Below, piece after piece: positions 8,799 through 40,073 of a DNA stretch of 57,637 bases. Source of the DNA: an uncultured Candidatus Saccharibacteria bacterium (GTDB lineage Bacteria; Patescibacteriota; Minisyncoccia; Phycocordibacterales; UBA918); assembly GCA_964469295.1 (NCBI GenBank), contig CAYXYJ010000007.1, positions 14,465 through 72,101 of the forward strand, written 5' to 3'. The notes beneath the pieces were generated by a model. That model worked only from the letters and a program-made list of their open reading frames with translations. It had not been told where the DNA came from and did no database searches. The first letter of the stretch is position 1, and the number at the start of each line of letters is the position of its first letter. Made by a program: the position numbers and the translations under genes.

Positions 8799-8819
8799 CC
8801 GCCGGGCAAAGCCCGGCGG
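8799..8819 (-). terminator. Hairpin downstream of the small ORF
   Basis: CCGCCGGGC-aaa-GCCCGGCGG. Confidence 0.55.
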
Positions 8820-8836
8820 GGAATGGGGAAGTGCTA

Positions 8837-8923
8837 TTACTTCCAAAACAAGGGCAAGAAAGCGAGTGCGGTAAAGATGACCGCCGCCCCGCCCGCCATG
8901 CCGTAGGCCAGTATTTCAATCAT
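8837..8923 (-). CDS. Unannotated 28-aa hydrophobic small protein (MIEILAYGMAGGAAVIFTALAFLPLFWK)
   Basis: AGGAGG 8 nt before the ATG (alternative ATG at 8929); tandem TAA TAG stops; hairpin downstream; single TM-like segment. Confidence 0.6.
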   Translation of the reverse strand: MIEILAYGMAGGAAVIFTALAFLPLFWK

Positions 8924-9015
8924 GAACATTTCCTCCTACGCATATATAACAATCCATACAGTGTTTGAGTTACATTTTTGCAGAACTAGCCACAACGACG
9001 TATACTACTACCACT

Positions 9016-9636
9016 ATGGTAATCACACATCACGGCGGGCAGTGTTTTAAGGTGTCATTTGGCGATACTACCCTCGCCTTTGATCCAATTGCCAAGGCTT
9101 CAAAGCTGACCCCGGTCAAGTTTGGCGCTGATGTGGCTTTTGTATCTCTCAATCATCCGGATTTTAATGGTGTCGAAAACGCTTCACATGGCGCGAAAGC
9201 TCCATTTGTGGTGCAAGGTCCCGGCGAATACGAAATTGGGTCAGTGACGGCTCGGGGGTATGGAGTAAAAACCATGTACGCCAACAAAGAACATTACTCT
9301 ACTATCTATCAAGTCCGTCTCGAAGATATCAATATGGTTTTTTTGGGGGCGTTAAGTAATCCAGACATTGATCCAAAAATTCTCGGTGAATTGGGTGATG
9401 TGGATATTTTGTTTGTACCAATCGGTGGCGGTGATGTACTTGAAGTACCACAAGCAGCCAAATTAGGACTCAAGTTGGAGGCAAAATTGATTATTCCGAT
9501 GCATTATGACGCGACTGCACTGAAAGCGTTTTTGAAAGAGGCCGGTGCCGATGGGGTAACGCCGGTTGATAAACTGACGATCAAGAAAAAAGATGTAAAC
9601 GAAATGGAAGGAGAAATTGTCGTGTTATCTGTGTAA
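9016..9636 (+). CDS. MBL-fold metallo-hydrolase-like protein (degenerate metal motif)
   Basis: ITHHGGQCF, SLNHPDFN, DILFVPIGG, IIPMHY. Confidence 0.8.
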   Translation: MVITHHGGQCFKVSFGDTTLAFDPIAKASKLTPVKFGADVAFVSLNHPDFNGVENASHGAKAPFVVQGPGEYEIGSVTARGYGVKTMYANKEHYSTIYQVRLEDINMVFLGALSNPDIDPKILGELGDVDILFVPIGGGDVLEVPQAAKLGLKLEAKLIIPMHYDATALKAFLKEAGADGVTPVDKLTIKKKDVNEMEGEIVVLSV

Positions 9637-9652
9637 CCGCGTATTTTGCCGT

Positions 9653-10054
9653 ATGTTTTTTACCTCGATTGACGCCTTAAAGCGAAAGCCAAAAGCCATT
9701 CGTCAACAGTATGCCTTCGTTGGTGCTTTGTTAATTACAGGGGTGATATCCGGAGTGTGGACGCTAACCTTACCAGCGCGATTTTCTCCAACGGTAGAAT
9801 TGGCTGATACCCAGGCCGCGACTGGGCCATTTGCGGGAATGTGGCAATCATTTCGTGATCGTTGGCAGACGATGCAAGATTCGGTGGCGGCTCTGCCAAT
9901 TGCTGCCGTAGCGACCAGCACCAGTAGTAGTACGACTGATATTGATATGTCGGTCGTGACCCATCCGACGACAACCATTCCTAAACCAACAACACCTGAT
10001 CCCGCGCCGGTGATGATTTTGATTGCAACGACGACTGATGCGGTTGGTGAGTAA
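9653..10054 (+). CDS. Hypothetical single-pass membrane protein with Thr/Pro-rich tail
   Basis: One TM segment and a low-complexity C-terminus; fills the gap before gyrA. Confidence 0.7.
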   Translation: MFFTSIDALKRKPKAIRQQYAFVGALLITGVISGVWTLTLPARFSPTVELADTQAATGPFAGMWQSFRDRWQTMQDSVAALPIAAVATSTSSSTTDIDMSVVTHPTTTIPKPTTPDPAPVMILIATTTDAVGE

Positions 10055-10074
10055 TACGTCGATTCAGTAAAATG

Positions 10075-10117
10075 GAACACAGCGCGGGGCGGCCGTAGGC
10101 CGCCCCGCGCTGTGTTC
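10075..10117. repeat. 20-bp-arm palindrome with C(GTA)G triloop
   Basis: GAACACAGCGCGGGGCGGCC-GTA-reverse complement. Confidence 0.9.
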
Positions 10118-10188
10118 ACCTTAAGCAAACCTTTGTGGTATACTAATACCCGTTATTATTCGTATTATCCTAGCTTCAAACGAGTTAT

Positions 10189-12660
10189 ATGCCGAAAAAG
10201 ACTGACAGTACCGAAACGATTCCCACACCAGAACGCGGTATCATGACCGAAGAAATCACTGGCGAAATGGAGCGAGCGTATTTGGACTACGCGATGTCCG
10301 TCATTACCTCACGCGCGCTTCCCGATATTCGTGACGGCTTAAAGCCCGTGCATCGCCGTATTTTATATTCAATGCGCTTAAACGGTTTGACAGCGAGTGC
10401 TAAATTTAAAAAATCAGCGACGGTGGTGGGAGATGTGCTTGGTAGTTTTCATCCGCATGGTGATGGCGCGGTGTATGAATCAATGGTGAAATTGGCGCAA
10501 CCGTTCGCGACCCGCTATCCATTGGTCTTGGGGCAAGGAAACTTTGGTTCGATTGATGGCGACGGAGCAGCGGCCTATCGATATACCGAGGCTAAAATGT
10601 CACGCATTGCCGAAGAAATGTTGCGCGATCTCGAAAAAGATACGGTTGACTGGCGTCCAAACTTTGATGGTACCAAAAAGGAACCAACCGTGTTGCCGGC
10701 GGCGGTACCGAATCTCCTCCTGATGGGATCACTTGGCATCGCGGTGGGAATGGCCACCAATATTCCGCCACATAACCTGCGGGAAATTGCCAGTGCCGTC
10801 GAACATCTGATTGATAATCCTGAGGCCACAACCGAAGATTTATTGAAATACATTAAAGGTCCCGATTTCCCTATGGGTGCAGTCGCCTTTAACCAGAAAG
10901 ATATTGTCCATGCCTACACACATGGACGGGGTGGGGTAACCGTGCGTGGTGAAGCAGAAATTATCGAAGACAAAAAAGGTAATTTCGCTATTGTCATTAC
11001 GTCAATTCCATTTCGAGTCAACAAAGCGGACATGCAAGAAAAAATCGCTGACTTGGTGCGCGAGAAAAAAATCGAAGGCATTCGTGAAATGCGTGATGAG
11101 TCAACGAGCGACATCCGCGTGGTGATTGAATTAAAGTCTGGCGCACAACCACAAACGGTATTGAACAAACTGTACAAACACACCCAACTGGAAGAAACGT
11201 TCCACTACAACATGGTGGCGCTTGTTGATGGCGTGCCACAAACAGTGTCCCTAAAATTGATTTTACAAGAGTATGTCAAACACCGGGCTGAAGTCGTCCG
11301 TCGCCGAACGCAATATGATTTAAATAAGGCCCAAGACCGCGAACACATTTTGCTTGGTCTTAAAAAAGCCCTCGATCATATTGATGCCATTATCAAATTG
11401 ATTCGTGCGGCCAAGGACGTCCCAACCGCGCATGCGGGACTGATGAAAGAATTCAAGTTTTCAGCCATTCAGGCGCAAGCGATTCTGGACATGCGTCTCC
11501 AAAAATTGGCTGGACTGGAACGGAAGAAAATTGAAGACGAATTAAAGGAGGTGCAGAAACTGATTAAAGAACTCGAGGCGATTTTAAAGAGTAAAGCCAA
11601 GATGCTCGGGTTGGTAAAATCGGAGTTACTTGAAGTCGCTCTGAAATACGGTGACGATCGTCGGACTAAAATTGTGAAAGGTGGCGTTAAAATGATGAGT
11701 CAAGAAGACCTTATTGCCGAAGAAGAAAGTGTTCTTGTTCTCACTGCTGGTGGCTACGTTAAACGAACCAATCCCGAAGAATACCGCGTCCAAAAGCGCG
11801 GTGGAGTGGGGGTTGTTGATCTTAACACTAAAGAAGAAGATGTGGTGACGAGTCTTATTACCACTTCCACACACAGTGATCTCTTGTTCTTTACCGATAA
11901 AGGAAAAGTATACCAAAGCAAAATGTATGAAATTCCTGAAGGCCGTCGCGCTACCAAAGGTAAGTCGATTATGAACTTTTTGTCGATGGCTCAAGATGAA
12001 CGAGTTACCTCGGTCTTGCCGGTGCGTAAAGATGAATGGGCTGGAGAATGGGGACTCATGATGGTGACGAGAAATGGTGTTGCGAAAAAATCTGACGCAG
12101 CGGCTTTCAAAGATGTGCGTCGGAGTGGACTCATTGCGATTACACTCAAAGATGATGATTCGTTGATTGCGGCTAAATTTGTCGGCAAAGGCGACGAGAT
12201 GTCGCTTGTGACGCGAAAAGGCCAAGCAATCCGGTTTAAAGAATCTGACGTGCGTGAAATGGGTCGTACGGCGGCTGGGGTGACAGCGATGAAACTCGGC
12301 AAAGGTGATGTGATTGTATCGGCTGATGTAATCAAAAAGGGCGAAAATAAAGCCGAAATTTTGGTTGTGACTGAAAATGGTTACGGTAAAACCTCGCCGG
12401 TAAAAGAATTCAAGGTGCAAAATCGTGGCGGGTCGGGGATTAAAGTGGCCAAAGTGACCGATAAAACCGGTGTGGTGGTGGGTGCGTGCGTGATTTTGGC
12501 TGAAGAACGCGGCGATGGGGAATTGGTCATCATGAGTAAAAAGGGCCAAGTGATCAAGTTACCATTCAAAGATGTGCCAACCCTGGGACGGGATACACAG
12601 GGTGTGCGAGTAATGAAAATGCGGGCCGGGGATGCGATTGCTTCGATTGTCTTCGTGTAA
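10189..12660 (+). CDS. gyrA: DNA gyrase subunit A
   Basis: [13 protein letters not shown] catalytic Tyr, GyrA-box-like QKRGGVG, beta-pinwheel repeats. Confidence 0.98.
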
Positions 12661-20788: not shown

Positions 20789-20809
20789 ACTAAATATCGT
20801 AAAGGACTT

Positions 20810-20930
20810 GGTCACTCTCGTGGCTTAATTATTTCACTTTGTTCATAATTGAGCTCACTCGTGCGGCCTCGACCGTTTCGGTCCTAAAGGGGACCCCGAA
20901 ACAGTCTTTCAAGTCCTGCCCCGGGCTACA
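20810..20930 (-). repeat. Structured dispersed element, subfamily A (tRNA-Leu(TAA) trailer)
   Basis: Colinear with 29150-29270; loop at 20833-20844; anti-tRNA segment at 20908-20926. Confidence 0.85.
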
Positions 20931-20976
20931 AAACAATAGCTTCACCATGCATTCGCATAGTGAAGCTTTGTTGTTG

Positions 20977-21060
20977 TGCCCGGGGCGGGACTTGAACCCG
21001 CACGACCTTGCGGTCACAAAATTTTAAGTCTTGCGTGGCTACCGATTACACCACCCGGGC
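20977..21060 (-). tRNA. tRNA-Leu(TAA)
   Basis: Cloverleaf with long variable arm, loop CTTAAAA. Confidence 0.95.
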
Positions 21061-27356: not shown

Positions 27357-27397
27357 CAATAACAACAGGCGGCGCGAAGTGCCGCCTGTTGTTATTG
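27357..27397. terminator. 19-bp hairpin with C(GAA)G loop between convergent genes
   Basis: CAATAACAACAGGCGGCGC-GAA-GTGCCGCCTGTTGTTATTG. Confidence 0.75.
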
Positions 27398-28936
27398 TCC
27401 ATGCAATCGAAATTGTTTCGCTATGAGGGGTTCAACCGGTTGCTTGTCGTCAGTAAAAATCACATCATCAACCAAGGCGCTCTCCGGAATAGTGATGTAT
27501 CGACTATTCGCTGAAAAACTGTAGCCCGCGATTGAATGGGTAATTGTGACGTCGGGGAAAATAATTTCCTGTCCTTCGTGTCGAGCAACGAACAAAATAT
27601 TTTGCATACCACTGTCGTGCGGATTGCTCACCGGAATGATGGCAAGATTAGGGAATACCGTCTTAATGGTCTTTATGAGTGAGCCGGTCATGCTCGTACC
27701 GTAGGTATCGAGACTGCCGATGTAGTTAAAGATAGCCACTCCCTCAGGTGATAAGCGATCTTTCACCGCCGCAAAAAATTCGCTGGTGGACAAGTGGGCG
27801 GGAATAAAATGTCCACTATTCATCACATCGGAAAAGATAACATCATATTGTGTGGTAGTACTTTGGAGAAATACTCGCGCATCCACGGTATAGTGGTGAA
27901 GATTTTCACTAACCGGTAACTCGAAATAATCGTACGCAATTGGCAATAATTGTGGTTCCATTTCGACGGTATCAATGGGAATATTGGGATAGAGCGCGTG
28001 GACGTATCGAGGGACGGTAAAGGCTCCGCCACCGAGAGCAAGATAATTACGGGGGGTTGGCACCATTTTTTCGGTCAAGACAGCATATTGGGCGTACGGA
28101 AAGACAATTTGATTACTGCCGGGAATAATGGCTGATGAATGGTTGGTATCATTTTTTAAAAAACGGTACGTGGTACCGTTAATGGTTCTTTCGAACACTT
28201 CGATGTGGCTATAGAGTCCGTCCGTGCTATAGAGTAAGGCTTTTCCTGTGCTTGATGAATGGTATGACACTACAAATATCGTGCTGACAAGAGCAATAAC
28301 CACACTAGTACCAGCGACAATCAATCGTTGTGTCGTTTGTTTTCCAGTGCGCCACCACAGCATGCTAGTCCAAACGGTAAGAAACAATGCGGTATAGGCC
28401 ATTCCAGCAATCAATCCAATATACGGAATAAGAAAAAAGCCAGTGCTCAAGCTGCCGGTAATACTGCCAATTGTGCTCCAAAAAAATACCGTCCCGACCA
28501 TCGCTCCAGCCGTGTCAGAAGTCTCGCGCATGGTCAATAACTTAATCACAAACGGTGAATCAATGCCCAGGAGAAGTGCTGGCAAAAAGTAAAACGCTAC
28601 CGCTAAGACCAGTGGACCAAATTGCAAACCGAGAGCCGGAGCAACCATTGGCAAAAGCATTACTGCCATCATGATGACTAACAGTAGCAATAATCCAGCA
28701 CTGGCCAACACTGCCATCAACGTTGTTGGTTTGGGGGAGTAATCGGCTAATCTGCCACCCCAGTAATAGCCGAGACTAAGGGCGAGTAAGACCACGGTAA
28801 TGACACTCGAAATGACCGGCAGTGAACTGCCGTAGTATGGTGCTAATAATCGCACGCCAGCAATTTCGATCACGAGTACCGCCGCCCCGGTGATAAACAC
28901 TGTCGCCAGTAAGAGATACTTTTGGTTGGGAAACAT
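27392..28936 (-). CDS. Fused membrane domain / spermidine-synthase-like protein
   Basis: Multi-TM N-terminus; LALGGGAFT, DTVEME, DARVFL, YDVIFSD, IFTDDKQPVE. Confidence 0.9.
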   Translation of the reverse strand: MFPNQKYLLLATVFITGAAVLVIEIAGVRLLAPYYGSSLPVISSVITVVLLALSLGYYWGGRLADYSPKPTTLMAVLASAGLLLLLVIMMAVMLLPMVAPALGLQFGPLVLAVAFYFLPALLLGIDSPFVIKLLTMRETSDTAGAMVGTVFFWSTIGSITGSLSTGFFLIPYIGLIAGMAYTALFLTVWTSMLWWRTGKQTTQRLIVAGTSVVIALVSTIFVVSYHSSSTGKALLYSTDGLYSHIEVFERTINGTTYRFLKNDTNHSSAIIPGSNQIVFPYAQYAVLTEKMVPTPRNYLALGGGAFTVPRYVHALYPNIPIDTVEMEPQLLPIAYDYFELPVSENLHHYTVDARVFLQSTTTQYDVIFSDVMNSGHFIPAHLSTSEFFAAVKDRLSPEGVAIFNYIGSLDTYGTSMTGSLIKTIKTVFPNLAIIPVSNPHDSGMQNILFVARHEGQEIIFPDVTITHSIAGYSFSANSRYITIPESALVDDVIFTDDKQPVEPLIAKQFRLHGQ

Positions 28937-29149
28937 GGTACCTAGTATAGCAGAATATAGTGGAGATAACGGGCGGCCCTACGGGCCGCTCGTATCAATA
29001 TAAGAAAACCGTCTGACCAATAAAAGTTGGCTCGTTCGTACTTCACTGTTCGAATCCCTCTAGTCAGTGACATTTAGTCACGTACTCCCGGCGCACGCAA
29101 TAAAAATCGCCTAGGCAAATGTCTGAGTAATTTTTTATATTTGAGATTC

Positions 29150-29270
29150 GGTCACTCTCGCGGTTAAATTAGTTCACTTCGTTCCTAATTTAACTCGCTC
29201 GTGCGACCTCACCAGTCTCGGCCCTAAAGGGGACCCCGAGACTGGTTTTCGAATCCCTCCGGCGCTACAA
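29150..29270 (-). repeat. Structured dispersed element, subfamily A (original tRNA-Tyr trailer)
   Basis: Colinear with 20810-20930; loop at 29173-29184; anti-tRNA-Tyr segment at 29248-29265. Confidence 0.85.
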
Positions 29271-29413
29271 ACAGCAACGACCCAAATGCGAATGCATTTG
29301 GGTCGGCTGATCTGTGCGCCGAAATGGAAGCGGTTCGACAAATGTGTGTAGTGTAAATAAGCCTGAAATCGTGAAAATCTTGTGAATCTACCGCAAAATA
29401 GTAGGATGTCTAT

Positions 29414-29857
29414 ATGTCTGAATATAGACTCTCGCAAGAAATAGTGGCTTTATCTGAATCAGATAAGTGGGACGAAGCTCGACTTGAGTGGGAGCTTTTT
29501 CGAATGTTTGATCAAGATGATCTTGATACTTGCTTGTGTGGTCATTATCCCATAAAAGAAATATGTGTCCTGAGAAACAAAAAGAACGATAACCAGGCCA
29601 TCGTGGGTAACTGCTGTGTTCAGAAGTTTATGGGTATTTCTTCAGACAAATTGTTTGCTGCCCTTAAAAGGGTGAAAAAGGACATTGGCAAACCATTTAA
29701 CGCTGATGTTATAGAGTTTTCGTTTGAGCGTGGATATATTAGTGATTGGGAAAAGGGTTTTTATCTTGATACCTGGCGAAAGAGGGACTTGAGTGAGAAA
29801 CAGACAAAAGAAAGAGTTAAAATCAATAAGAAGATTCTGCTTAAACTATCAAAGTAA
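29414..29857 (+). CDS. Hypothetical Cys-rich (putative Zn-binding) protein
   Basis: CLCGH...C...VGNCC; ends 4 nt before the OLD nuclease start. Confidence 0.8.
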   Translation: MSEYRLSQEIVALSESDKWDEARLEWELFRMFDQDDLDTCLCGHYPIKEICVLRNKKNDNQAIVGNCCVQKFMGISSDKLFAALKRVKKDIGKPFNADVIEFSFERGYISDWEKGFYLDTWRKRDLSEKQTKERVKINKKILLKLSK

Positions 29858-29861
29858 ATTT

Positions 29862-31961
29862 ATGTTTTTATCAGTCGTAAAATTATGGAATTTCAGACAG
29901 TTTGGTTCAGTAGGATCTGAAAAAAACAGAAAACCTGACTTGCATACAACATTTGGTCCAGGGCTTAACTTGTTTGTGGGAGAGAATGATTCAGGTAAGA
30001 CGACTGTTGTTGACGCGATAAATTACATCGTTATTCCGCAGAGCTACGAAAACATGCGAATCAGGCATGATGATTTTTTTGGTGATGAAGATTGGCTAAG
30101 AATTGAATGTGTCTTTACTGGATTCACTTCAAATCAGGCTAAAAACTTCATCGAGTACTTAACAATTGATGATAAAAAAGTTTCAGAAATTGCAGCTGAA
30201 GAATTAACTGAGGATGAGCTAATAGAGAAACAGATTGCAAATCTAGAGATGACACTATTTTTGGAAGCTGAAAAAAATAGTGGAGATAAGCCTTTGTGGC
30301 ATAGGGTCAAAGTAAAAGTTGGAGATGAGGTGGTCGACTTAAGTGGTGATGTTCGATTTCAGTTTCTCAGATCAATGTATCTCAAGCCTTTAAGAGATGC
30401 AGAGAGCGAACTCACTGCTAAGCCAAGGTCAAGATTGTCACAGATTCTTCTTAAACATGATTCTTTTGAAGAGGCAAAGGGAGAAAAACACCCTCTCACC
30501 AAGGTATTTTCTGTGGCGAATACTGACATCAGAGGCTTCTTCGAAGGCGAATTTGCAGACCCTGAATCGGTACTGGATATTTTGAGTAGATTATTTATCT
30601 TGTCATCGAAAAAGGTTGAGCAAGGTCTGAATGCTGCAGATGAGGCAGAGTTAAGTTCTTTGCTTGATGAATACCATGATATTAAAACCAATAAAAATGT
30701 CTCTGGTAAAAGAGTAAGTGAACAAATTGGAGAGCACCTAAACAGGTTTCTTTCAAAGAAAAAGAGTAAACAGGCAAAGTTTGATATTTCTGATCAGCAA
30801 TTGTCACAGGTTTTGCAAAAACTTAATCTGGCTCTTGATGAGAAGCGCTCTGGCTTAGGTGCATTAAATATTTTGTTTATGAGTGCTGAACTGCTTCTTT
30901 TGGCAAGAGAGAAGTCAGCAAGTTTACAGTTGGGCATTATTGAGGAGGCTGAGGCACATCTTCATACACAAGCACAGATGAGAGTTCTTGATTACCTACA
31001 ATCGTTAGCTGACAAGAGTGCAGATTCTATGCAGCTATTCGTTACAACACACAGCACTCATATTGCTTCAAAGGTTAAGCTCAAAAACTTAATCTTGTTT
31101 AGAAATGGTAAGGCTTTCAGTATGGCGCCCAACCACACGAAACTTGAACCTCAAGATTACTCATTTCTGGAAAGATTCCTTGACGCAACAAAAGCAAATT
31201 TGTTTTTTGCTGAGGGAGTTTTAATTGTTGAGGGAGATGCTGAGAATATTTTGCTTCCCAGTCTGGCAAAGTTGATTGGCAGAGATCTTGTTTCTTACGG
31301 AGTTTCAGTTGTAAATGTGGGACATTCAGGACTCACACGATTTTCTGATATTTTCATTCGTAAAGAAGGTGAAAGTGAGCTTGATGTGCCTGTCGCAAAT
31401 ATTAAGGATCTTGATGTAAATTACAAAGATTATCTTGTAGAAGGAAAGTTAACGCTTCCTGAAAATATTGCAGAACTGGAGTTATCAAATTGGGAGAAAA
31501 AGGTAGAAGGAGAAGATCAGTGTGTGAAAAATTTTATTTCACCTCACAAAACTCTTGAATACGACTTGGCTCTAGATCAAGAGTTGAGAACTTTGTTTGC
31601 TAGGGCTGTATTTAGGATGATTCATTCTAGGCGCAAACAAGGTGAAGGGATTTTTATACAGGATGAAGCTTCGTTAAAAGCTGCAGATGAAGAGGCGGAT
31701 AATTTCATAAAAGAATCAGTGGAGGCCGGTAAAACTGACCAGCAAACAGCTTACGATTTATATAGGAAATGTAAGAAACACAAGACTCTAACAGCTCAAT
31801 TTTTTGCTCAGATATTAGAGGAATTCACACCTTCTGAACACCTCGATCCTAAGGGGCAGTTAATGTGTCGTGCAGTACAGGCTTCATTGGTCGCTAAGTT
31901 AAAACGTGGGAATGCTGGTTATTTGTTGAATGCTATTGAATATGTGACTGAACCTTTATAA
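29862..31961 (+). CDS. gajA: OLD-family ABC-ATPase/TOPRIM nuclease (Gabija GajA-like)
   Basis: GENDSGKT Walker A, IIEEAEAHLH Walker B, VTTHS, TOPRIM IVEGDAE and DLD. Confidence 0.85.
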   Translation: MFLSVVKLWNFRQFGSVGSEKNRKPDLHTTFGPGLNLFVGENDSGKTTVVDAINYIVIPQSYENMRIRHDDFFGDEDWLRIECVFTGFTSNQAKNFIEYLTIDDKKVSEIAAEELTEDELIEKQIANLEMTLFLEAEKNSGDKPLWHRVKVKVGDEVVDLSGDVRFQFLRSMYLKPLRDAESELTAKPRSRLSQILLKHDSFEEAKGEKHPLTKVFSVANTDIRGFFEGEFADPESVLDILSRLFILSSKKVEQGLNAADEAELSSLLDEYHDIKTNKNVSGKRVSEQIGEHLNRFLSKKKSKQAKFDISDQQLSQVLQKLNLALDEKRSGLGALNILFMSAELLLLAREKSASLQLGIIEEAEAHLHTQAQMRVLDYLQSLADKSADSMQLFVTTHSTHIASKVKLKNLILFRNGKAFSMAPNHTKLEPQDYSFLERFLDATKANLFFAEGVLIVEGDAENILLPSLAKLIGRDLVSYGVSVVNVGHSGLTRFSDIFIRKEGESELDVPVANIKDLDVNYKDYLVEGKLTLPENIAELELSNWEKKVEGEDQCVKNFISPHKTLEYDLALDQELRTLFARAVFRMIHSRRKQGEGIFIQDEASLKAADEEADNFIKESVEAGKTDQQTAYDLYRKCKKHKTLTAQFFAQILEEFTPSEHLDPKGQLMCRAVQASLVAKLKRGNAGYLLNAIEYVTEPL

Positions 31962-31963
31962 AT

Positions 31964-33892
31964 ATGACCAGCGATGAGATTGATATTTTAGAAATTGAAA
32001 AGATTTTACTCCCAGCAGGAGCCAGCTTTAATGATGAGAGACGAAAATTTATATTTGAAAACTCAAAAAATGTTGACCTCATTGCTTGTGCTGGAAGTGG
32101 AAAGACAACAGCTTTGCTTGCAAAATTACTATTGCTTGAACGACAACATAAAGCTAAAGATGGCATATGTGTTCTAACTCATACTAATGTCGCAATAAAC
32201 GAAATCAAAGATAAGATTTCATCTGACTCCATTCTTCTTCAATTCCCTAGCAGTTTCAGTACCATACAACAGTTTGTTGATCGTTTTCTAACTATCCCTG
32301 CATATAGGCATTTAACAGGGCACAACCTTAAGCAAATTGATACTGAAGCAGCCAATAAACGCTTTGTGAACAACCTTTATGCTCTACCTAACTCTACTGA
32401 GAAAACTGCGCTGTTTGGTTATCAAAGTTTTGGAAGAGAATGGGAAGATCGTAAAAAGGTTCTTGAAAGAGGTGTTGAATATATTATTGAAGTGGGGTCC
32501 GGTCATTTTAAATTTACAGGCAATCACAATAACAGACCAATACCTCTGAAAAACCCTAATAGTAATTGCTATAAAGCGACCAAAAAAGCAAAAGATGCAG
32601 TTTTTCTTGAAGGGTACATTACATATGATGAGGCTTATTCGCTCGCTTTTTGGTATTTAGATAAGTTTCCGTTTATTGAAAAGTGTCTTTCGGAAAGATT
32701 CCGTTTTGTGTTTGTTGATGAGATGCAAGATTCGTCAAAAATCCAAATTGATCTGCTTAAAAGAATTTTCAGACATCCTGATAATGTGTTTCAAAGAATT
32801 GGCGATCCAAATCAAACTATCTATGACACAAACAATGATAACTTGTGCGAATGGGAGCCATCAGAAAATCTGCATAACCTGAAAGGGAGTTTGCGACTTT
32901 CTACATCTACCGTTAAGGCTATTTCAGGCATTAGAAATGATTGTACAGAGGAAATAGAGGGGAATGAAAATTTACCTACAATAAATCCTCACATCATTAC
33001 TTTTAAAGAAGGTGAAGAAAATAAAGCTATTCATGAGTACAAGAATTTGCTGATAAAGCATTGGTCCGAATTAGATTACAAGGAAGGTGATCAAATAAAG
33101 ATTGTGGGTTGGACAGGGAAAGACAATGGTGATTTATGTTTGCCTAGGTATAACCCATTATTTTCTAATTCTACTTCAAAGAAATATCTTCCAAATATTG
33201 AGAGCTACAAATCTCAGTTTGAATCACATATCAGAAAGCGGGGGTCATTAAAGGCCGCCAGGTCCTTGATTCTACAAACTGCCACTCAGCTACTATTTGA
33301 GTTGGGAGTAAAAAATGAAAATAAATATTACACCCAAGTAGATGTTGAAGAGAAAATTGAGTCTCACGTGGATTTGAATCGAAGATTATTGAATCTGTCT
33401 GTAAATCTGGCTTATTCAGAAAATGCTTGGGATAGAGTTAATGAATTCATTTCAAACAATGTTTTACCACTGTTTATTCAAGATGAAAAAAGTATTGATC
33501 ATGAAAAGCTTAATGAATTCCTAAACGGTGAATCAGTCGTTTCAATTACATCTGAAGAACCTAATGATGCAGAGGATTTCTTGGTGGTAGATGATTTTGA
33601 CACAAAGATTCCGATTACGACTTCGACCATTCACTCAGTCAAAGGGGAGACTCATAAATCTACCTTGTATGTAGAGACTAAGTACCATAAATATGATTTG
33701 GAACGATTATTAAAGGGTCTCTGTGGAGGTTTGGAAAAAGCAGATAACTTAGACGGAAAGAGAAAGATGATGGGCTATGTTGCTATGTCCAGAGCGTCTC
33801 ACCTACTTTGTTTAGCGGTCCGTGATGTTGTTATTGACCAAGATTTAGAAAAGCAATTACAAGGTATTGGTTGGGAAGTGGTAAGGGCTTAG
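31964..33892 (+). CDS. gajB: UvrD-like helicase (Gabija GajB-like)
   Basis: ACAGSGKT, LTHTN, VDEMQD, IGDPNQTIY, TIHSVKGE, YVAMSRA; 2 nt after the OLD nuclease. Confidence 0.85.
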   Translation: MTSDEIDILEIEKILLPAGASFNDERRKFIFENSKNVDLIACAGSGKTTALLAKLLLLERQHKAKDGICVLTHTNVAINEIKDKISSDSILLQFPSSFSTIQQFVDRFLTIPAYRHLTGHNLKQIDTEAANKRFVNNLYALPNSTEKTALFGYQSFGREWEDRKKVLERGVEYIIEVGSGHFKFTGNHNNRPIPLKNPNSNCYKATKKAKDAVFLEGYITYDEAYSLAFWYLDKFPFIEKCLSERFRFVFVDEMQDSSKIQIDLLKRIFRHPDNVFQRIGDPNQTIYDTNNDNLCEWEPSENLHNLKGSLRLSTSTVKAISGIRNDCTEEIEGNENLPTINPHIITFKEGEENKAIHEYKNLLIKHWSELDYKEGDQIKIVGWTGKDNGDLCLPRYNPLFSNSTSKKYLPNIESYKSQFESHIRKRGSLKAARSLILQTATQLLFELGVKNENKYYTQVDVEEKIESHVDLNRRLLNLSVNLAYSENAWDRVNEFISNNVLPLFIQDEKSIDHEKLNEFLNGESVVSITSEEPNDAEDFLVVDDFDTKIPITTSTIHSVKGETHKSTLYVETKYHKYDLERLLKGLCGGLEKADNLDGKRKMMGYVAMSRASHLLCLAVRDVVIDQDLEKQLQGIGWEVVRA

Positions 33893-33913
33893 ATTTGATA
33901 TATAAATTGTTGC

Positions 33914-34324
33914 ATGAGTAATTTACTTGATTTAATAACTAAAAACTACTGTACGCTTCTTAACGTGCCAACTTCAAAATCTGCCGAAGGGCAGGCTTGG
34001 CAAATAATTGCTAATTTTTGGTCCCAGCTCTGGCCCTACTTGTTAGGATTCCTGGTCGTGGTGGTGTTGGCCGAGTTGCTGACTCGCCATAAAAATGAAT
34101 ATAACTCTGCAAATGGATTTACGCCTCAATTTAATAGATTTGTGGGGAGTGGCACATACATGGGGCTTCAGATTGGTCTATATTTTCTGGTCCATTTAAT
34201 ATTTGGAAACATTGCTTATTGTTTCCCTTGGCCGTATCTAGCTCACATAGTGGTGTTTTCGCTGACATTTTACATTCTGCATTGGATAGGATTTTGGCCT
34301 AAAAAATATAAGAGAAAGTACTAA
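33914..34324 (+). CDS. Hypothetical membrane protein (about 3 TM)
   Basis: Hydrophobic segments; 21 nt after the helicase. Confidence 0.7.
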   Translation: MSNLLDLITKNYCTLLNVPTSKSAEGQAWQIIANFWSQLWPYLLGFLVVVVLAELLTRHKNEYNSANGFTPQFNRFVGSGTYMGLQIGLYFLVHLIFGNIAYCFPWPYLAHIVVFSLTFYILHWIGFWPKKYKRKY

Positions 34325-34397
34325 ATGGTTTTGACCAAAGCATAGGCTTGTGACTACAATAAGTTTGAATCTTTGATTCTTATCAAAAATCAAACTT

Positions 34398-34697
34398 ATG
34401 GCACGAGGAGGCAAAAGACCAGGCGCCGGTCGTAAAAAAGGATTTTCAGCAATCACCGCGGAAGAGAGTCGCAAAGTTATTGCTGATCTTGTAGCTAAAG
34501 ATATTGCTCCAATTACTAAGGCCTTAATTAAAAAAGCAAAACAGGGAGATGTAAAAGCAGCTAGCTTGCTGTTTGATCGTGCGTTTGGAAAGCTTGAGAC
34601 AAAAGCTCAAAAACCATCTTTTTTCTACAATGTAGCTGATGTTCGAGAGCGATATGGATCCGGGGCAATGGCGGAGGAGCGAAAGAAGTTCAGTTAG
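34398..34697 (+). CDS. Small phage-type protein, terminase-small-subunit-like
   Basis: MARGGKRPGAGRKKG N-terminus; KAKQGDVKAASLLFDRAFGK helix. Confidence 0.55.
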   Translation: MARGGKRPGAGRKKGFSAITAEESRKVIADLVAKDIAPITKALIKKAKQGDVKAASLLFDRAFGKLETKAQKPSFFYNVADVRERYGSGAMAEERKKFS

Positions 34698-34709
34698 TCA
34701 TTTTTAAGA

Positions 34710-35243
34710 TTAGAATCCAGTCTTGAGTCCGAGTATATCTTCTCTTAACTTTTTAATGAACATAGCTTCCTTTTCGCGTAGTTCGACTACCAAAAGAGCG
34801 TTCTCTAAATTAAGTTGCTCATCAGAACTATCGCTAAGGTGCTGAGCGAAAGCTGATCCGATGACTGGTTCATTATCGTCATTGAAAATATTGTCGTACT
34901 CTCTGTATCTATCGTTCAGTAAGTCACTAATACTAGATCTTTGCTCAAAGTTATAGCCATTTCTCTTATATGCTGAAAAATACTCCTCATGTACTAAATC
35001 TAGAAACAGATGATTAGTGAGTTTGTCTGTATAAATTGGATTAATTCTTAAGTACCAAAGAAGATATGCCATGGACTCAAATTTAAAGACTTCTTTAAAT
35101 TTGCCACTCCATGGATTTACCTCACTTTCATTTTCGAGTACAACATTGTGAGCAATTAAGGCAAGTTCACTTGATACAACTAATGCTACTTTTCTCAACG
35201 CTCTTTTAAAGCGCTTGAATTTTAAAAATTTAATTATTGACAT
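34710..35243 (-). CDS. Hypothetical protein
   Basis: 177-aa ORF preceded by a structured leader. Confidence 0.7.
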   Translation of the reverse strand: MSIIKFLKFKRFKRALRKVALVVSSELALIAHNVVLENESEVNPWSGKFKEVFKFESMAYLLWYLRINPIYTDKLTNHLFLDLVHEEYFSAYKRNGYNFEQRSSISDLLNDRYREYDNIFNDDNEPVIGSAFAQHLSDSSDEQLNLENALLVVELREKEAMFIKKLREDILGLKTGF

Positions 35244-35249
35244 ACAAAA

Positions 35250-35378
35250 AGCCCGCTACCAGGTAGGACCGAAGTCCATATCTAGAGTTTCCCCCAAATA
35301 GCACAAACAAGTGACCCCTGATAACGGGTTCTTTACTTGTTTGTGACTAACTTATTCGCACCATACCGCCAGCGGGCT
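35250..35378 (-). promoter_or_regulatory. Structured leader RNA / attenuator
   Basis: AGCCCGCT/AGCGGGCT closing helix plus U5 just before the ATG; 11-bp inner helix; cUUCGg hairpin. Confidence 0.65.
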
Positions 35379-35472
35379 GTCGGGTTAGGTGACTATATTG
35401 TGTTTGTAATATTACACTTAGTTTCTTGGTCCGCAAGCGTTACTTTTCACGGAAAAGAGCTAATATAAAATC

Positions 35473-36093
35473 ATGAAGGAGCTGGAGATTGAAGATACAT
35501 GTGGTGTATGTGAGAAAATTCAGAAAATTGCTGAGGGAAGTTCTTCTGGCCAGGTGTTAACTTACCTACTTGAGACAAGCTCCAACACTCGTTTAAAGAA
35601 AGAAAGAGCATGTCTTGAAGAACTCGCAAATGAGTACCATGCTATTACTTTTGTTGGTAGGGCTGAGACGCATCTAAATAAAATAAAATATAAATTCCGA
35701 ATAAACGAGAAGCGATTTCAAAAGCATTTAAACGACGAGTGTAATCCTGAACATTTCCCTAGAAAAATTGGTGACAGAGTTCAGATTATCGCAAGCATGA
35801 GGTGGGGTTTGTTTGTAAAAGGAAGGCCTGAGTACCGATGTAGATTGTCTCCGCGTAGAATGAAATTCATTTTTAACTTAATGTATGGATCTGATGATAT
35901 TCCAACGCGAAATGGTAAGAAAATGTCTACTTCAAACAAAACTAAAGCTGTGAATATTATCAACGACCAATTCATGAGTAGTCTGGGTTTTGATAAGAAG
36001 CTTGTTGAAGGGGATGGGGGTCGTGGTTATTACTTGAATGAGCTAGTTTATATTGTTACTCCAGACCAACAATATTCCACGGAAATGGAATAA
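35473..36093 (+). CDS. Hypothetical protein with possible C-terminal winged-helix DNA-binding domain
   Basis: C-terminal ...AVNIINDQF...LVEGDGGRGYYLN resembles an OmpR-type wing. Confidence 0.6.
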   Translation: MKELEIEDTCGVCEKIQKIAEGSSSGQVLTYLLETSSNTRLKKERACLEELANEYHAITFVGRAETHLNKIKYKFRINEKRFQKHLNDECNPEHFPRKIGDRVQIIASMRWGLFVKGRPEYRCRLSPRRMKFIFNLMYGSDDIPTRNGKKMSTSNKTKAVNIINDQFMSSLGFDKKLVEGDGGRGYYLNELVYIVTPDQQYSTEME

Positions 36094-36116
36094 AATGATA
36101 GTCGAATGATTTATGT

Positions 36117-36216
36117 CAGCTCTGTACTCTCGTAAGTACGGAGCTGGTTTTCGTTAAGACTCGTCACCAGTAAGGACTCTCCAAACCAGCTCCTTGGAGG
36201 GTCCTTACTGGTTTTT
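36117..36216 (+). promoter_or_regulatory. Two-hairpin RNA switch upstream of the rep/integrase gene run
   Basis: 12-bp and 19-bp stems each followed by T-runs; 11-nt cross-complementarity between 36140-36150 and 36183-36193. Confidence 0.65.
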
Positions 36217-36219
36217 ACT

Positions 36220-36378
36220 ATGCAACTTTCTGAACAACACGTTGAAGCGTTCATTGAACTATATAAAAAACATTATGGTGTTGTTCTTGATCGTGAAGTT
36301 GCAGTCGAGAAAGGTATTCAGCTTTGTAGATTAGTAGAACTTGTTGATTTTAGTCAAAGTGAATATGAAGAAGAATAA
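36220..36378 (+). CDS. Unannotated 52-aa protein (MQLSEQHVEAFIELYKKHYGVVLDREVAVEKGIQLCRLVELV...)
   Basis: Open frame ATG 36220 to TAA 36378, overlapping the next ORF; amphipathic helical pattern; below the ORF-track size cut-off. Confidence 0.7.
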   Translation: MQLSEQHVEAFIELYKKHYGVVLDREVAVEKGIQLCRLVELVDFSQSEYEEE

Positions 36379-36679
36379 AAAATTACTTGAAAGTGTTGTG
36401 GAAGTTTTTACCTTTAAAGAAGCGGTGGTTTTGCAATACACAGGTCACTCTCTTAGATCAATTGATAAAAATAATGACATTGATTGTCCGTATATCTATC
36501 GTTTCTTTCTTAGGAGCGACACATTAGCACTGCTTGATGATTTTGGAGAAGGTACGATTATGGTCGAACCGGGTTGTTTTATTGATGCTTTGGGAAACTT
36601 ATTGGAGCAAAAAGAACGCTTTGTGGGAGGGGGTAAGAATAAAAAAGATGACAATAAAGGGCTGGATCAAATTATTTAG
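36365..36679 (+). CDS. Hypothetical protein
   Basis: Overlapping ORF in the island operon. Confidence 0.55.
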   Translation: MKKNKKLLESVVEVFTFKEAVVLQYTGHSLRSIDKNNDIDCPYIYRFFLRSDTLALLDDFGEGTIMVEPGCFIDALGNLLEQKERFVGGGKNKKDDNKGLDQII

Positions 36680-37139
36680 GAGAGAATTTGAATGGTTCAA
36701 GGATCTTTCAAATCCAGAAATAGTGTATTTACTCGCTGCACGAGTCGTTGCAGAGTGGGATAATAAAAAGGAGCAATTTGGGACTTTTGATGCAAGAATC
36801 AAAGAAATGCAGAAGATTCTCGGATGGTCTGATGGTACTATAAGCAGAGTTGGCAAATTGCTTTTGAGCAAGGGTTATTTTCATAAAACTGATGACCATA
36901 GGCGCTGGAGGATAACAAATGCAGAATTATTTTTCTCTAAGGGTGGCAGTAGTAAAAAAGCTGAAAAAATTATTTTAGATACCGAAACTAATCTTCAAAC
37001 ACACGAACTTAATCTTCAGATATCTGAATATTTTCCAGATAAGATTAAGCAAGGAATCAAGGATTTAAAGGATAAAATGAGTGTGTCTGATGGCTCTAAG
37101 AAGAAGAATCAAGAAGATAAAGAAAATACAAATAAGTAA
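36648..37139 (+). CDS. Phage-type replication initiator / HTH protein
   Basis: N-terminal GWIKLFRR resembles the GWIKLHR motif of phage replisome organisers; HTH-like LGWSDGTISRVGKLL..KGY. Confidence 0.6.
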   Translation: MTIKGWIKLFRREFEWFKDLSNPEIVYLLAARVVAEWDNKKEQFGTFDARIKEMQKILGWSDGTISRVGKLLLSKGYFHKTDDHRRWRITNAELFFSKGGSSKKAEKIILDTETNLQTHELNLQISEYFPDKIKQGIKDLKDKMSVSDGSKKKNQEDKENTNK

Positions 37140-37142
37140 AAC

Positions 37143-38981
37143 ATGGACAGATATAAAGCAAGTAAATATTTCCTATACCTAAGACGGTCCCAAGACGCGG
37201 AAGATCGGCAGATGGCATCACTTGAAGACCAGGAGTCTGAGATGGTTGCTGTTGCTGAAAAACTAGGCCTAGAAATTGTTGACGTTATTGAGGAGTCTCA
37301 ATCAGCTAAAAAACCAGGAAGACCAAAATTTAATGACATGATTGCGAGAATCCATGCTGGAGAGGCAGATGGAATTGTTTGCTGGAAAATCAATCGCCTG
37401 GCTCGTAATCCAGTTGATGGTGGTCAGATCTCATGGCTTTTGCAGCAAGGGGTAATTAAACATATTCAAACGTACTCACGTGACTATCAGCCGTCAGACA
37501 ACGTGATTATGATGGCGGTTGAGCTTGGTATGGCGAACCAGTTTGTGAATGACTTGAGTGTCGATGTGAAGCGAGGAATGAGACAGAAGGCTGAACGTGG
37601 TTGGTATCCGCAGAGGTCTCTTCCTCCTGGCTACAAGCACAATAAGGGGTATGAAAAAGGTGAGGTTGAGATTGTGAGCACGAAGGAGCTCTCAATAGTG
37701 AAGAAGCTTTTCGAGGATATGCTGACCGGCAACTATTCTGCTTCGGATATTCAGAGAAAGTGTGGCACGTATGGAATAACCGGAAGGAAGGGGCAGCCAT
37801 TACCGCTTCAAACAGTCTTTAACATTCTCACCAATGAATTTTATTGTGGGTATTACTATTGGAAAGATTCTAATGGAGAAGAGGTAAGACACAAGGGCAA
37901 GCATAAGGCTATTTTGAGCGAGGATGAGTTTAATCGGGTCCAGAGGTTGTTGGGTAAGAAAGGGAGGCCAACACGCGTTAATAAGCTAGATTTTGCGTTT
38001 AGAGGCCCATTGAATTGTGGGGAGTGCGGGTGTGCTGTTACAGCTGAAGAAAAAGTGCGTTGTGTCTGTACTGGCTGCCGCTACAAATTCTCAGCCAAGA
38101 CTAGGACTGATTGTCCTAAGTGTGGTCTAGATCTATCAGAAATGAATGATCCAAAAATATACCGAAATGTCTACTACCACTGTACGAAAAAGAGAAAGGA
38201 CTATAAGTGCACTCAAAGTGTTATTGATGAAACGCAACTCAAGAAACAGGTGTATGGAGAATTAGGCAAAGTTGAGATTGATGAGGATTTCTACAACTGG
38301 GCAGTAGCGGCCCTTAAGCATACTCACGGTGATGAGATGCAGACTCAAGGTGACATCTTGAAGGGTCTTAATGATCGTTCTGTGGCTATTCAAGCACGTA
38401 TTGATAAGTTTGTACTGATGCGTGCAGATGGAGAGATTTCAAGTGATCAGCTTGCTCGTATGACAGCTGATGAAGAGAAAAGCTTAAAAGATATTGAAAA
38501 AGAGCAGAAGCGTCTTCATGCTCGTATGACAGAGTGGTCCGCTACTGCCGACAAGTATCTAACTTTTGCTGATCGGGTCCGCAGAAAATTCAATAAAGCT
38601 TCAAATGAAGAGAAAAGAGAGATGTTGACCATGTTAGGTTCGACACTCGAAATAACTGACAAAAAATTCAGAGTTATAGTCGCGAATGAGCTTTTAGGCT
38701 TCAAAAACGTCTATGTGAAATTGGGTAAGAAATTAGGAAGGTTCGACACTCAAAAAGCCCTTGATATACAAGGACTTTCTGAACAAAAACGCTTAGTTTT
38801 TGATGAACTGTGCGCCGGGAGGGATTCGAACCTTCGTAGGCTGATGCCAGCAGATTTACAGTCTGCCCTCGTTGACCGCTTGAGTACCGACGCAATTATG
38901 TGCATGAGGTGGTCAAACCTCATCTGTGTCGTACAACTTACCACAGATTGCCACTATTTTCAAAGGGGTCTTGTGTGGTAG
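37143..38981 (+). CDS. Large serine recombinase (integrase)
   Basis: YLRRSQ catalytic Ser, SAKKPGRPKF, INRLARN, recombinase domain, Zn-ribbon (CGECGC...YYHC), coiled coil. Confidence 0.96.
   Translation: MDRYKASKYFLYLRRSQDAEDRQMASLEDQESEMVAVAEKLGLEIVDVIEESQSAKKPGRPKFNDMIARIHAGEADGIVCWKINRLARNPVDGGQISWLLQQGVIKHIQTYSRDYQPSDNVIMMAVELGMANQFVNDLSVDVKRGMRQKAERGWYPQRSLPPGYKHNKGYEKGEVEIVSTKELSIVKKLFEDMLTGNYSASDIQRKCGTYGITGRKGQPLPLQTVFNILTNEFYCGYYYWKDSNGEEVRHKGKHKAILSEDEFNRVQRLLGKKGRPTRVNKLDFAFRGPLNCGECGCAVTAEEKVRCVCTGCRYKFSAKTRTDCPKCGLDLSEMNDPKIYRNVYYHCTKKRKDYKCTQSVIDETQLKKQVYGELGKVEIDEDFYNWAVAALKHTHGDEMQTQGDILKGLNDRSVAIQARIDKFVLMRADGEISSDQLARMTADEEKSLKDIEKEQKRLHARMTEWSATADKYLTFADRVRRKFNKASNEEKREMLTMLGSTLEITDKKFRVIVANELLGFKNVYVKLGKKLGRFDTQKALDIQGLSEQKRLVFDELCAGRDSNLRRLMPADLQSALVDRLSTDAIMCMRWSNLICVVQLTTDCHYFQRGLVW
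38811..38893 (-). tRNA. tRNA-Tyr(GTA)
   Basis: Cloverleaf, loop CTGTAAA, long variable arm; lies antisense inside the recombinase ORF tail. Confidence 0.95.
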
Positions 38982-39008: not shown

Positions 39009-40073
39009 ATGGTTTCGTACCTGTTTAGATTACTGGCCTTCACGTTTGTTTTTGTCAATATTTTATTTGTTCCGGCGGCATTGGCGGAGGAGCCGATGTA
39101 TCTTGGTGAAATTAATTTTAATAGCGGGTTGGTACCCTGTGGTGGGCAAGGGCAAGAACCGTGCCAAGCCTGTCATGTGATTGATCTAACCAACGGCGTC
39201 ATTGAGTGGTTGGTGATGGTGCTCGGTACCTTGGCCGCCATTATCATTGTCTATGCCGGATTCAAATTAGTAGTATCGGGCGGGAATCATCATGCTCGCG
39301 AAGAAGCCAAAAGCATGATTACAAATATGATTATTGGGTATGTGATTGTGCTGGCGGGGTGGTTGTTAATTGACACGGCGATGAAAGCGCTCTTGGATGA
39401 GGGTGAATTTGGTATTTGGAATCAAGTGCAGTGTGTAACGCAGCCAGACGTATTATGGACCGATCCCGCTACTTTTCTTAGTGGTACCAATGGTTGGAAT
39501 TCTACCGGAGTCACTGGCGTTGTGGGAGTAGAGTGTGGGTACGTGAGAGGTCCGGCCGGTATGCCAACGACCGAACGCGATTGTTCGGTTGCCATCGCGC
39601 AGTGTGAGGCGGTACCTGGAATAGCGACCGTTTCACCTGATGGTGCATCCGTTACTTGTGCACCGGCGCCAGTGCAAGGAAGTAGTGGCGGAGGAGTGCA
39701 GTGTAATCCTGGTAACACGGCGTGTAGTGTCAGTGCCTTGCAAGGGTATGGACTAAATGCGCAACAAGCGAATATTATGTCTTGTATTGCAATGACGGAA
39801 AGTTCTGGGATTCCGAGCATTCCGCCTTACAATCTTGCTCATCCCGAATCAAATTCGTCAGCATGTGGTACATTTCAGATTGTACGGACAACGTGGAATA
39901 GCTACGCTAGTCAAATATCGACTGATTGTCGTGACCATGCTTCCAGTTGTCAAAATGCTCGCTGTAACGCTCAACTAATGGTAGCGTTGGTGCGTGCCAG
40001 AGGATATAATGATTGGACCTGTCCAGGTTGTAATAGACGAGCGGCGGCCTGTGTTTCCCGGTATGGTGGCTAA
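39009..40073 (+). CDS. CPR pilin-like domain fused to a lytic-transglycosylase/lysozyme-like domain
   Basis: N-terminal IVYAGFKLVVSGGN...EEAKSMITNMIIG; C-terminal IAMTESSG, SACGTFQI..TTW, CN. Confidence 0.75.
   Translation: MVSYLFRLLAFTFVFVNILFVPAALAEEPMYLGEINFNSGLVPCGGQGQEPCQACHVIDLTNGVIEWLVMVLGTLAAIIIVYAGFKLVVSGGNHHAREEAKSMITNMIIGYVIVLAGWLLIDTAMKALLDEGEFGIWNQVQCVTQPDVLWTDPATFLSGTNGWNSTGVTGVVGVECGYVRGPAGMPTTERDCSVAIAQCEAVPGIATVSPDGASVTCAPAPVQGSSGGGVQCNPGNTACSVSALQGYGLNAQQANIMSCIAMTESSGIPSIPPYNLAHPESNSSACGTFQIVRTTWNSYASQISTDCRDHASSCQNARCNAQLMVALVRARGYNDWTCPGCNRRAAACVSRYGG

Follow-up and report, generated by a model that had tools for sequence, protein, structure and literature searches.

The 57,637-nucleotide (nt) stretch of Candidatus Saccharibacteria DNA analysed here (hereafter the window) contains a segment of about 9.5 kb that is bounded by two copies of a 10-bp core, the second of which lies inside int, the gene of a large serine recombinase whose reading frame runs over the 3' end of a tRNA-Tyr gene. 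Two integrase C-termini are encoded, one in the free and one in the integrated state, and this swap of isoforms is real. The structural account that accompanies it, a serine-integrase insertion at the 3' end of tRNA-Tyr with attP laid over the end of int, is very probably correct, judged from the comparison with relatives described below.

Core repeat and the two coding states of int

An initial annotation of the window had placed one copy of the repeat at the left end of the segment and the other inside the serine recombinase open reading frame (ORF), and an exact repeat search recovered both: the core 10-mer CTGTGCGCCG has two copies only in the whole window (Table 1). Dinucleotide-preserving shuffling gave 0.10 expected matches of CTGTGCGCCG, and two or more matches in 0 of 100 shuffles. 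The right core takes in the last 7 nt of tRNA-Tyr (the discriminator and six bases of the acceptor stem) together with 3 nt of trailer. G+C content between the cores is 36–43%, versus 45–49% in the flanks, with the change falling at both cores, and sequence to the left of 29312 is host-like, as it has a paralogue at 20.8 kb and also matches a Saccharibacteria genome. Relatives are of similar size: a circular one, L002, measures 8.4 kb, and the islands in L168, L169 and L005 measure 9.6–11 kb (L numbers denote the ~160 relatives' loci that were collected around int homologues).

In the integrated state int ends on ...DELCA-GRDSNLRR...GLVW, and its frame runs antisense over the entire tRNA-Tyr. 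Both the 54-amino-acid (aa) length of this tail and its antisense position, as first annotated, were reproduced by re-translation together with ARAGORN and Rfam. Joining the ends, 38817 to 29322, kept the frame and yielded a protein of 569 aa ending on ...DELCA-EMEAVRQMCVV with TAA at 29354–29356; this is the excised-state tail that had been proposed, and it belongs to a set of eight homologous 11-codon tails. By itself, a single 10-mer repeated between zones as large as these would carry moderate significance at most. The repeat is more than a chance one because the tail encoded after the left core is homologous to the C-termini that unintegrated relatives have.

Table 1. Coordinates of the features discussed in the text (positions in the window)
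Feature	Position	Strand	Basis and remarks
Predicted integrated element, about 9.5 kb	29312..38817	.	Low G+C, flanking cores, relatives of similar size
attL core	29312..29321	+	Left CTGTGCGCCG copy, exact repeat; predicted crossover dinucleotide TG at 29313–29314
attR core	38808..38817	+	Right CTGTGCGCCG copy; int codons Leu556 to Gly559; predicted crossover TG at 38809–38810
int, large serine recombinase gene, integrated-state frame, 612 aa	37143..38981	+	Resolvase, Recombinase and Zn ribbon (Pfam)
Integrated-state-specific 54 codons and stop	38817..38981	+	ORF list; antisense to tRNA-Tyr and to the region upstream of the tRNA
Predicted P' arm of attP, equal to the last 11 excised-state codons (EMEAVRQMCVV) and TAA	29321..29356	+	Joined-end translation; eight homologous 11-codon tails; contains zinc-ribbon-type motif AGCGGTTCG
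Predicted P arm of attP	38784..38807	+	int codons 548–556; contains AAAAACGCT, inverted counterpart of the P' motif; half-sites of four elements compared
tRNA-Tyr(GTA), intact	38811..38893 (or from 38810)	-	ARAGORN; Rfam (49.4 bits); predicted B' arm made up of acceptor and T-arm (AGGGATTCG)
Host terminator hairpin, predicted B arm of the former attB	29278..29305	-	Terminator scan; 12-bp stem, then TTGCTGTTTG
Predicted embedded intrinsic terminator	38752..38775	-	Antisense in int codons 537–545; GUCCUUG-UAUAU-CAAGGGC-UUUUU; 34 nt beyond the tRNA-Tyr 3' end
Motif U	38740..38749	.	GGTTCGACAC in the window; family consensus palindrome GGTTCGAACC(T), also written GGTTCGAACCT; int codons 532–535
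Gabija system	29793..33892	+	GajA 29793–31961, GajB 31964–33892, 2 nt apart
52-aa ORF	36220..36378	+	tblastn matches upstream of int in 36 related loci, one of them the circular L002

The domain set of int is that of a large serine recombinase: a Resolvase domain (PF00239, E = 7e-19, residues 10–153) in which R14, R15 and S16 are nearly invariant among homologues is accompanied by a Recombinase domain (PF07508, E = 5e-14) and a weak match to a zinc ribbon (PF13408, Zn_ribbon_recom), and the homologue alignment contains eight invariant cysteines (C292, C295, C309, C312, C324, C327, C347 and C356). An AlphaFold model of the integrated isoform was confident up to residue ~527 and contained a coiled coil (381–485) made of long helices (381–428 and 434–485) that have strands on either side. 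Disorder is predicted from residue 533: the predicted local distance difference test (pLDDT) score fell below 50 at residues 533–544 and 556–612, and was 29–41 over the 54-codon integrated tail. Only the residues after Ala558 are exchanged on integration, and the folded domains stay whole.

The search for int homologues returned more than 1600. All of the best 60 share ...F..LCA(G/E) and diverge thereafter: most continue with xDSNxRR, as encoded by the T-arm read in antisense (GGATTCGAACC), and a minority end on LCA-GMEMVRTRCFA, -GMELVRTWCVG, -EIEAVRQFCSV or -ELEAVRTFCLA, all homologous to the joined-end tail of the window. Extending this comparison of C-termini to the best 120 gave antisense-tRNA read-through in 75 and an excised-type tail in 26, and the homologues do not end upstream of the core, which agrees with the initial annotation. 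At the level of loci, 56 of 163 showed an overlap of int with an antisense tRNA, at the 3' end of the latter (Asn 30, Tyr 16, His 7, Trp 2, Arg 1). The far end was recovered for six integrated elements, and each of them showed a core copy of 7–10 bp followed by an in-frame tail: EMEAVRQMCVV in the window's own element (WIN), EMEAVRQLCVV in L168, ELEAVRQRCVA in L169, GIELVRNFYLV in L005, and, in two elements targeting tRNA-Asn, WLEDVRTWI (L053) and WIEDVRTCAV (L034).

Four lineages were found in both states, with int at least 93% identical at the nucleotide level and divergence setting in exactly at the core: L001 versus L086 and L090, L073 versus L072, L075 and L081, L132 versus L144 and L145, and L057 versus L067. 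The elements compared are near-identical and come from different samples. Together with the joined and integrated frames of the window itself, these lineages bear out the earlier claim of two state-dependent isoforms. An integrase 70% identical to that of the window is encoded on the 8.4-kb contig L002, which has a 22-nt terminal overlap and an ORF that is restored over the junction; by its sequence, L002 reads as a circle or tandem form with attP. Unrecombined relatives, including this circular contig, join at the same position as had been predicted for the window.

Some relatives showed further arrangements. On the 190-kb, chromosome-like contig L164, int (10001–11767) encodes a 57%-identical integrase with an intact excised-type tail, and its neighbours are two tyrosine integrase genes and a DUF87/TrwB-like ATPase; the attP of this serine integrase appears unused, and the element may ride within a larger island. 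In L034 (positions 650 and 3956) and L005 (1734 and 2746), multiple attL-like sites or additional direct copies (16–22 nt) of the tRNA 3' end lie upstream of a single integrase, a pattern suggestive of tandem or decayed insertions into one and the same tRNA. Among the IMG/VR viral contigs, the integrase had no relatives.

Attachment site and signals in the 3' codons of int

Beyond the common ...GCC, the sequence is GGGAGGGA-TTCGAAC on the tRNA side and GAAATGGAAGCGG-TTCGAC on the element side. The motifs of the tRNA T-arm (AGGGATTCG) and of P' (AGCGGTTCG) are identical at 7 of 9 positions, with the element copy lying 5 bp further out, and the same 5-bp shift was present in all four elements for which both junctions were available (the window, L005, L053 and L034). 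Serine integrases tell attB from attP by a zinc-ribbon motif that is shifted by 5 bp, and this motif was modelled at base pairs 11–19 and 16–24 for the Listeria A118-type (LI) integrase (Rutherford et al.). Since the shift seen here equals this known offset between attP and attB, a crossover at the TG at 38809–38810 is predicted: taking this dinucleotide as the centre, the motifs fall at 11–19 in B' and 16–24 in P', and the inverted counterpart AAGCGTTTT of the P' motif in the P arm likewise puts the centre on the first TG. Common identity between attP and attB amounts to 7–10 bp, and the attL/attR identities of the four elements intersect to TGTGCGC. The crossover is thus most likely in the first two trailer bases past the discriminator, and a crossover there would therefore leave the tRNA untouched.

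The reconstructed empty sites had the tRNA's own terminator (hairpin and T-run) in the B arm in four out of four cases, and integration moves the B arm about 9.5 kb away. In the window, the host hairpin would lie 6 nt beyond the core and just downstream of tRNA-Tyr in the empty site, and the paralogous locus at 20806–21060 displays the uninterrupted order of structured element, hairpin and minus-strand tRNA. The 3' codons of int appear to supply a replacement terminator for tRNA-Tyr. The embedded hairpin was missed by a standard terminator scan and was recognised by folding, by a dedicated scan with controls and by covariation. On the minus strand, the 75-nt trailer of tRNA-Tyr folded at -25 kcal/mol (z = -4.9). 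Paired positions made up 95.8% of the hairpin cells across 14 close relatives, with compensatory change at three pairs, and some of these changes couple a synonymous with a non-synonymous one. A hairpin with a T-run within 130 nt of the tRNA end was found in 24 of 42 non-redundant integrated relatives versus 8 of 252 control windows from the body of int, and the sequence of the hairpin differs between subfamilies. The tRNA-Tyr transcript probably stops ~60 nt into int, at this embedded terminator.

Directly past the T-run of the terminator on the minus strand lies a perfect T-loop-like palindrome, termed U. Its codons (R/x-F-E/D-P) are strongly biased, with TTC outnumbering TTT 69 to 12 (the background share of TTC is 35%), GAA outnumbering GAG 112 to 9 and CCT strongly preferred, and the codon before U is NGG whether it encodes R, W or G. 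The distance is equally rigid: in 36 of 42 diverse elements, exactly 88 bp separate U from the P' motif downstream of it. By these codon choices and this spacing, U is evidently constrained at the DNA level. Two roles for it were considered and rejected. The first made U the right half of an additional att-like site with its centre near 38721, and failed because the would-be left half varies at synonymous positions. The second, as the zinc-ribbon motif of the P arm, was discarded because U is ~60 bp away from the centre and a separate P-arm motif occupies the symmetric position.

Cargo, partner ORF and neighbouring features

The element carries a complete Gabija system as cargo: PADLOC identified GajA (E = 7e-172) and GajB (E = 4e-149), and Pfam assigned an ATPase (AAA_15) and an OLD-like TOPRIM domain to GajA and a UvrD-like helicase to GajB. 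The 52-aa ORF upstream of int, which matched no Pfam or PHROG family, is a candidate directionality factor or regulator by inference only. Serine integrases need a separate directionality factor in order to excise, and no other candidate for one emerged. No phage hallmarks were found in the element, and PHROGs matched only the integrase, apart from one weak small-terminase-like match. Cargo varies among related elements; L169 encodes a Prim-Pol/PriCT_1 replication protein at 7545–9806, which suggests an integrative-plasmid lifestyle. Inside the island, a match to the LOOT RNA of Rfam (RF03000; 48.3 versus a threshold of 46.4 bits) was located at 35265–35391 on the minus strand, directly upstream of the minus-strand ORF 34710–35243.

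Directly downstream of int and tRNA-Tyr, several relatives (L168, L169, L170 and L171) have genes with T4SS_pilin (PF18895) matches, in some cases with SLT as well, and the window has a 354-aa ORF (39009–40073) at the position that matches the T4SS_pilin genes of these relatives. The related elements may occupy one conserved chromosomal locus in related hosts.

Two structured sequences lie to the left of the element. The first is a ~120-nt element at 29150–29270 (+) with a paralogue at 20806–20935 (+), in which two long hairpins are followed by a tRNA-like T-arm and acceptor 3' end. Its copies are 82% identical with compensatory changes (fold z = -4.5), and downstream of both lie a hairpin terminator and, beyond it, a convergent tRNA gene (Tyr or Leu) whose 3' end faces the copy. 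This element is recognised by neither Rfam nor ARAGORN, and a search for tRNA-like fragments in 28800–29500 gave nothing convincing with ARAGORN (intron and low-score options) or Rfam (E<=10). The second is a sequence resembling the 3' end of tRNA-Tyr, TTCGAATCCCTC ... CCCGGCGCAC, which occurs at 29049–29107 (+) in the window, at 943–1000 in L163, and at 1639–1700 and 2845–2895 in L005. It has a 26-nt hairpin, GTGAGTGAC-ATTTA-GTCACTCAC, between the T stem and the acceptor strand and continues with GCAATAAAAA; the whole sequence is kept between Saccharibacteria-like and Kaiserbacteria genomes, with compensatory changes in the stem. This sequence may be a scar or pseudo-site of another element targeting tRNA-Tyr.

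Proposed mechanism, alternatives and related systems

The reading favoured here is that a small integrative element of a Patescibacteria host (candidate phyla radiation, CPR), with Gabija on board, would have been inserted past the 3' end of tRNA-Tyr by its own serine recombinase. The reaction would be an ordinary attP x attB recombination, in which the tRNA acceptor and T-arm serve as B' and P' copies their AG-G-TTCG motif 5 bp further out. attP would straddle the end of int, such that integration swaps 11 native codons for 54 arbitrary antisense-tRNA codons, while the other strand of the same 3' stretch of int would carry a terminator in place of the one that the tRNA loses. Here, the rationale for the overlap of attP with the int stop would be that the element has to lie right against the tRNA and provide it with new 3' signals, and I infer that the layout exists mainly from this need. 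The last ~35 residues of Int would then be a disordered tail overprinted on DNA and RNA signals, and the swap would, in the window's subfamily, have at most a modest effect, on the level of Int more than on catalysis. Taken as a whole, including the view that the exchange of tails is mostly a by-product, this reading is probable.

Codon usage separates DNA from protein constraint within the tails. The V-R-T codons of the excised tail are near-invariant as DNA (GTT in 16/16, CGA in 13/16 and ACC in 15/16) and coincide with the att motif; conservation of V-R-T/Q is, on these counts, due to the DNA site rather than to the protein. The integrated tails of relatives range from 2 to 62 codons (median 12) and follow no pattern, and since pLDDT is also low for this part, the integrated tail would seem to be unselected. 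The excised tail, on the other hand, appears to be weakly but detectably selected.

Several findings weigh against the favoured reading. The attP junction of the window's element (TTTGATGAACTGTGCGCCGAAATGGAAGCG) and its empty attB (GGTCGGCTGATCTGTGCGCCGGGAGGGATT) had no exact match in species-representative genomes, and an exact look-up in the protein collection returned neither the 569-aa nor the 612-aa isoform, meaning that the window's own protein is missing from it too. A search for the empty site via the left flanking gene (27392–28936) gave one relative of 54% identity that had no nearby tRNA or synteny. The crossover dinucleotide was placed by symmetry and common identity alone, and the B arms of the four reconstructed attB sites are poorly conserved between hosts; as they differ, recognition must lean on the tRNA half. 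With U, this region contains at least one functional DNA signal beyond those that the favoured reading accounts for. The excised-state tail is exactly 11 codons long in eight elements (56–82% identity) in spite of three different stops (TAA, TAG and TGA), and its Glu codon (GAA or GAG) and hydrophobic position (ATG, ATA, CTG or TTG) vary. Finally, ~40%-identical relatives carry a motif, [VI]-P-[SD]-F, exactly 13 codons after VRT and outside any 50-bp att site, and its codons are free (CCT/CCC/CCG and TCC/TCT/TCG/TCA); being kept through synonymous codons, the motif is presumably conserved at the protein level.

The last two of these findings also favour an alternative in which the C-terminal exchange is an evolved state sensor. 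Here, the excised tail would be needed for integration or would mark Int for turnover, and the integrated protein would be less active, stable or abundant, in part because int mRNA would have to traverse an active tRNA gene head-on, leaving the element locked in, as has been proposed for IntP and IntX of the Myxococcus phage Mx8, where the same kind of swap alters activity. All eight tails moreover end in small or hydrophobic residues. Yet the tail is only 11 aa in the window's subfamily, the DNA motif dictates V-R, the part of it that is best conserved, the model of the integrated isoform stays below a pLDDT of 50 from residue 556, and the integrated tails lack a pattern, for which reason any effect would have to come from losing the tail and not from its replacement. 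I consider such a sensor rather doubtful, and the same holds for a true switch of directionality, activity or stability in the window's subfamily, whether it worked by removing the tail or by head-on transcription against the tRNA gene, such that int mRNA would lack a stop codon. A switch is likelier in the long-tailed relatives than in the subfamily of the window.

Two further explanations concern the insertion itself. The 10-bp repeat could be a coincidence, with the island ending elsewhere or int being a resident gene that abuts the tRNA: the finding initially rested on the 10-bp repeat alone, and a 10-mer common to a 50-nt zone and the ~10 kb upstream is expected an estimated ~0.4 times by chance. 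This explanation was in effect tested and fails, because the tail after the left core matches the C-termini of unintegrated relatives and stops at the same codon, a shifted TTCGA motif follows the left core, the sequence left of 29312 is host-like and G+C changes at both cores; coincidence is accordingly very hard to credit. Integration could also be one-way and disable the enzyme, as with the 'suicidal' SSV-type integrases, leaving the integrated int as a relic. Both systems have attP inside int, and a directionality factor was not identified here. Against this, nothing but the residues past 558 changes, with the catalytic, recombinase, zinc-ribbon and coiled-coil parts intact and confidently modelled, near-identical elements occur in both states in different samples, and the conserved 52-aa partner ORF could be the directionality factor. 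A relic is therefore improbable.

Among known systems, Mx8 comes closest in layout: its attP lies within the integrase coding sequence, and integration converts intP to intX, with a new 3' end and a different C-terminus. The initial annotation had named this phage as the established case, and it is an apt comparator in the literature, as in both systems attP is inside the int ORF and integration replaces the C-terminus. Mx8 reportedly targets the 3' end of a tRNA-Asp gene and is said to replace a much longer C-terminal segment. Unlike the tyrosine recombinase of Mx8, however, the window enzyme is a large serine recombinase, and the 11 codons that it exchanges overlap the P' half-site; the likeness is one of layout, not of family membership. 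By its domain set, its short att sites with little common identity, and the 5-bp motif shift at the positions of the LI model, the enzyme resembles the phage serine integrases A118/LI, phiC31 and Bxb1. These are known with attP outside int and attB in protein-coding genes or intergenic DNA. According to a survey from 2014, no serine integrase was known to have a tRNA gene as its target, and a literature search of incomplete coverage returned no later report of tRNA-targeting serine integrases or of a serine attP inside int.

Archaeal integrases of the SSV type also recombine at a site within the integrase ORF. These are tyrosine recombinases whose int is split in two on integration, whereas the int of the window shares the position of the att site and keeps all of its folded domains intact. 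In the integration-dependent immunity systems of mycobacteriophage BPs and relatives, attP is in the repressor gene, the integrase is a tyrosine integrase, and a degradation tag is removed on integration; there, too, integration changes the C-terminus of a protein, but in the window it is the integrase that is altered and not a repressor. Finally, islands of the Islander class, which target tRNA genes with tyrosine integrases, sit at the tRNA 3' end with int beside the tRNA and the tRNA preserved. The window element shares the 3'-end site, the adjoining int and the kept tRNA; Islander-class islands have a long duplicate of the tRNA 3' end, in contrast to the 7–10 bp of identity and the predicted crossover just outside the mature tRNA seen here.

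An attP inside int with a swap of the C-terminus is hence known from Mx8, and its serine-integrase version in a large tRNA-targeting family is apparently undescribed. What is new in this analysis is the antisense terminator for the tRNA and the DNA-constrained palindrome U in the 3' codons of int, both as read from sequence. A wider reading, which I put forward only tentatively, is that these integrases form a so far undescribed family, widespread among Patescibacteria, Bacteroidota and further phyla, that would have specialised in tRNA 3' ends with the near-universal T-arm sequence serving as its zinc-ribbon motif, and that would pack attP, a replacement terminator, the T-arm-like palindrome U and a state-dependent peptide into the last ~40 codons of int as a built-in state sensor tuning integrase level or direction.

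Serine integrases are prized as genome-engineering tools for their short sites and for a direction of reaction that is controlled by protein alone. The elements described here would add a natural class that is aimed at tRNA genes, which are conserved in every genome and whose targeting was earlier credited only to tyrosine integrases, and they would offer naturally paired attP and attB sites with a recognition motif that can be read straight from the tRNA. A C-terminus that reports the free or the integrated state may provide a simple way into the effect of the extreme C-terminus on direction or stability. For the biology of CPR bacteria, the window documents a mobile carrier of Gabija, and a small element that would overprint coding sequence, recombination site and host-gene terminator tightly on one another.

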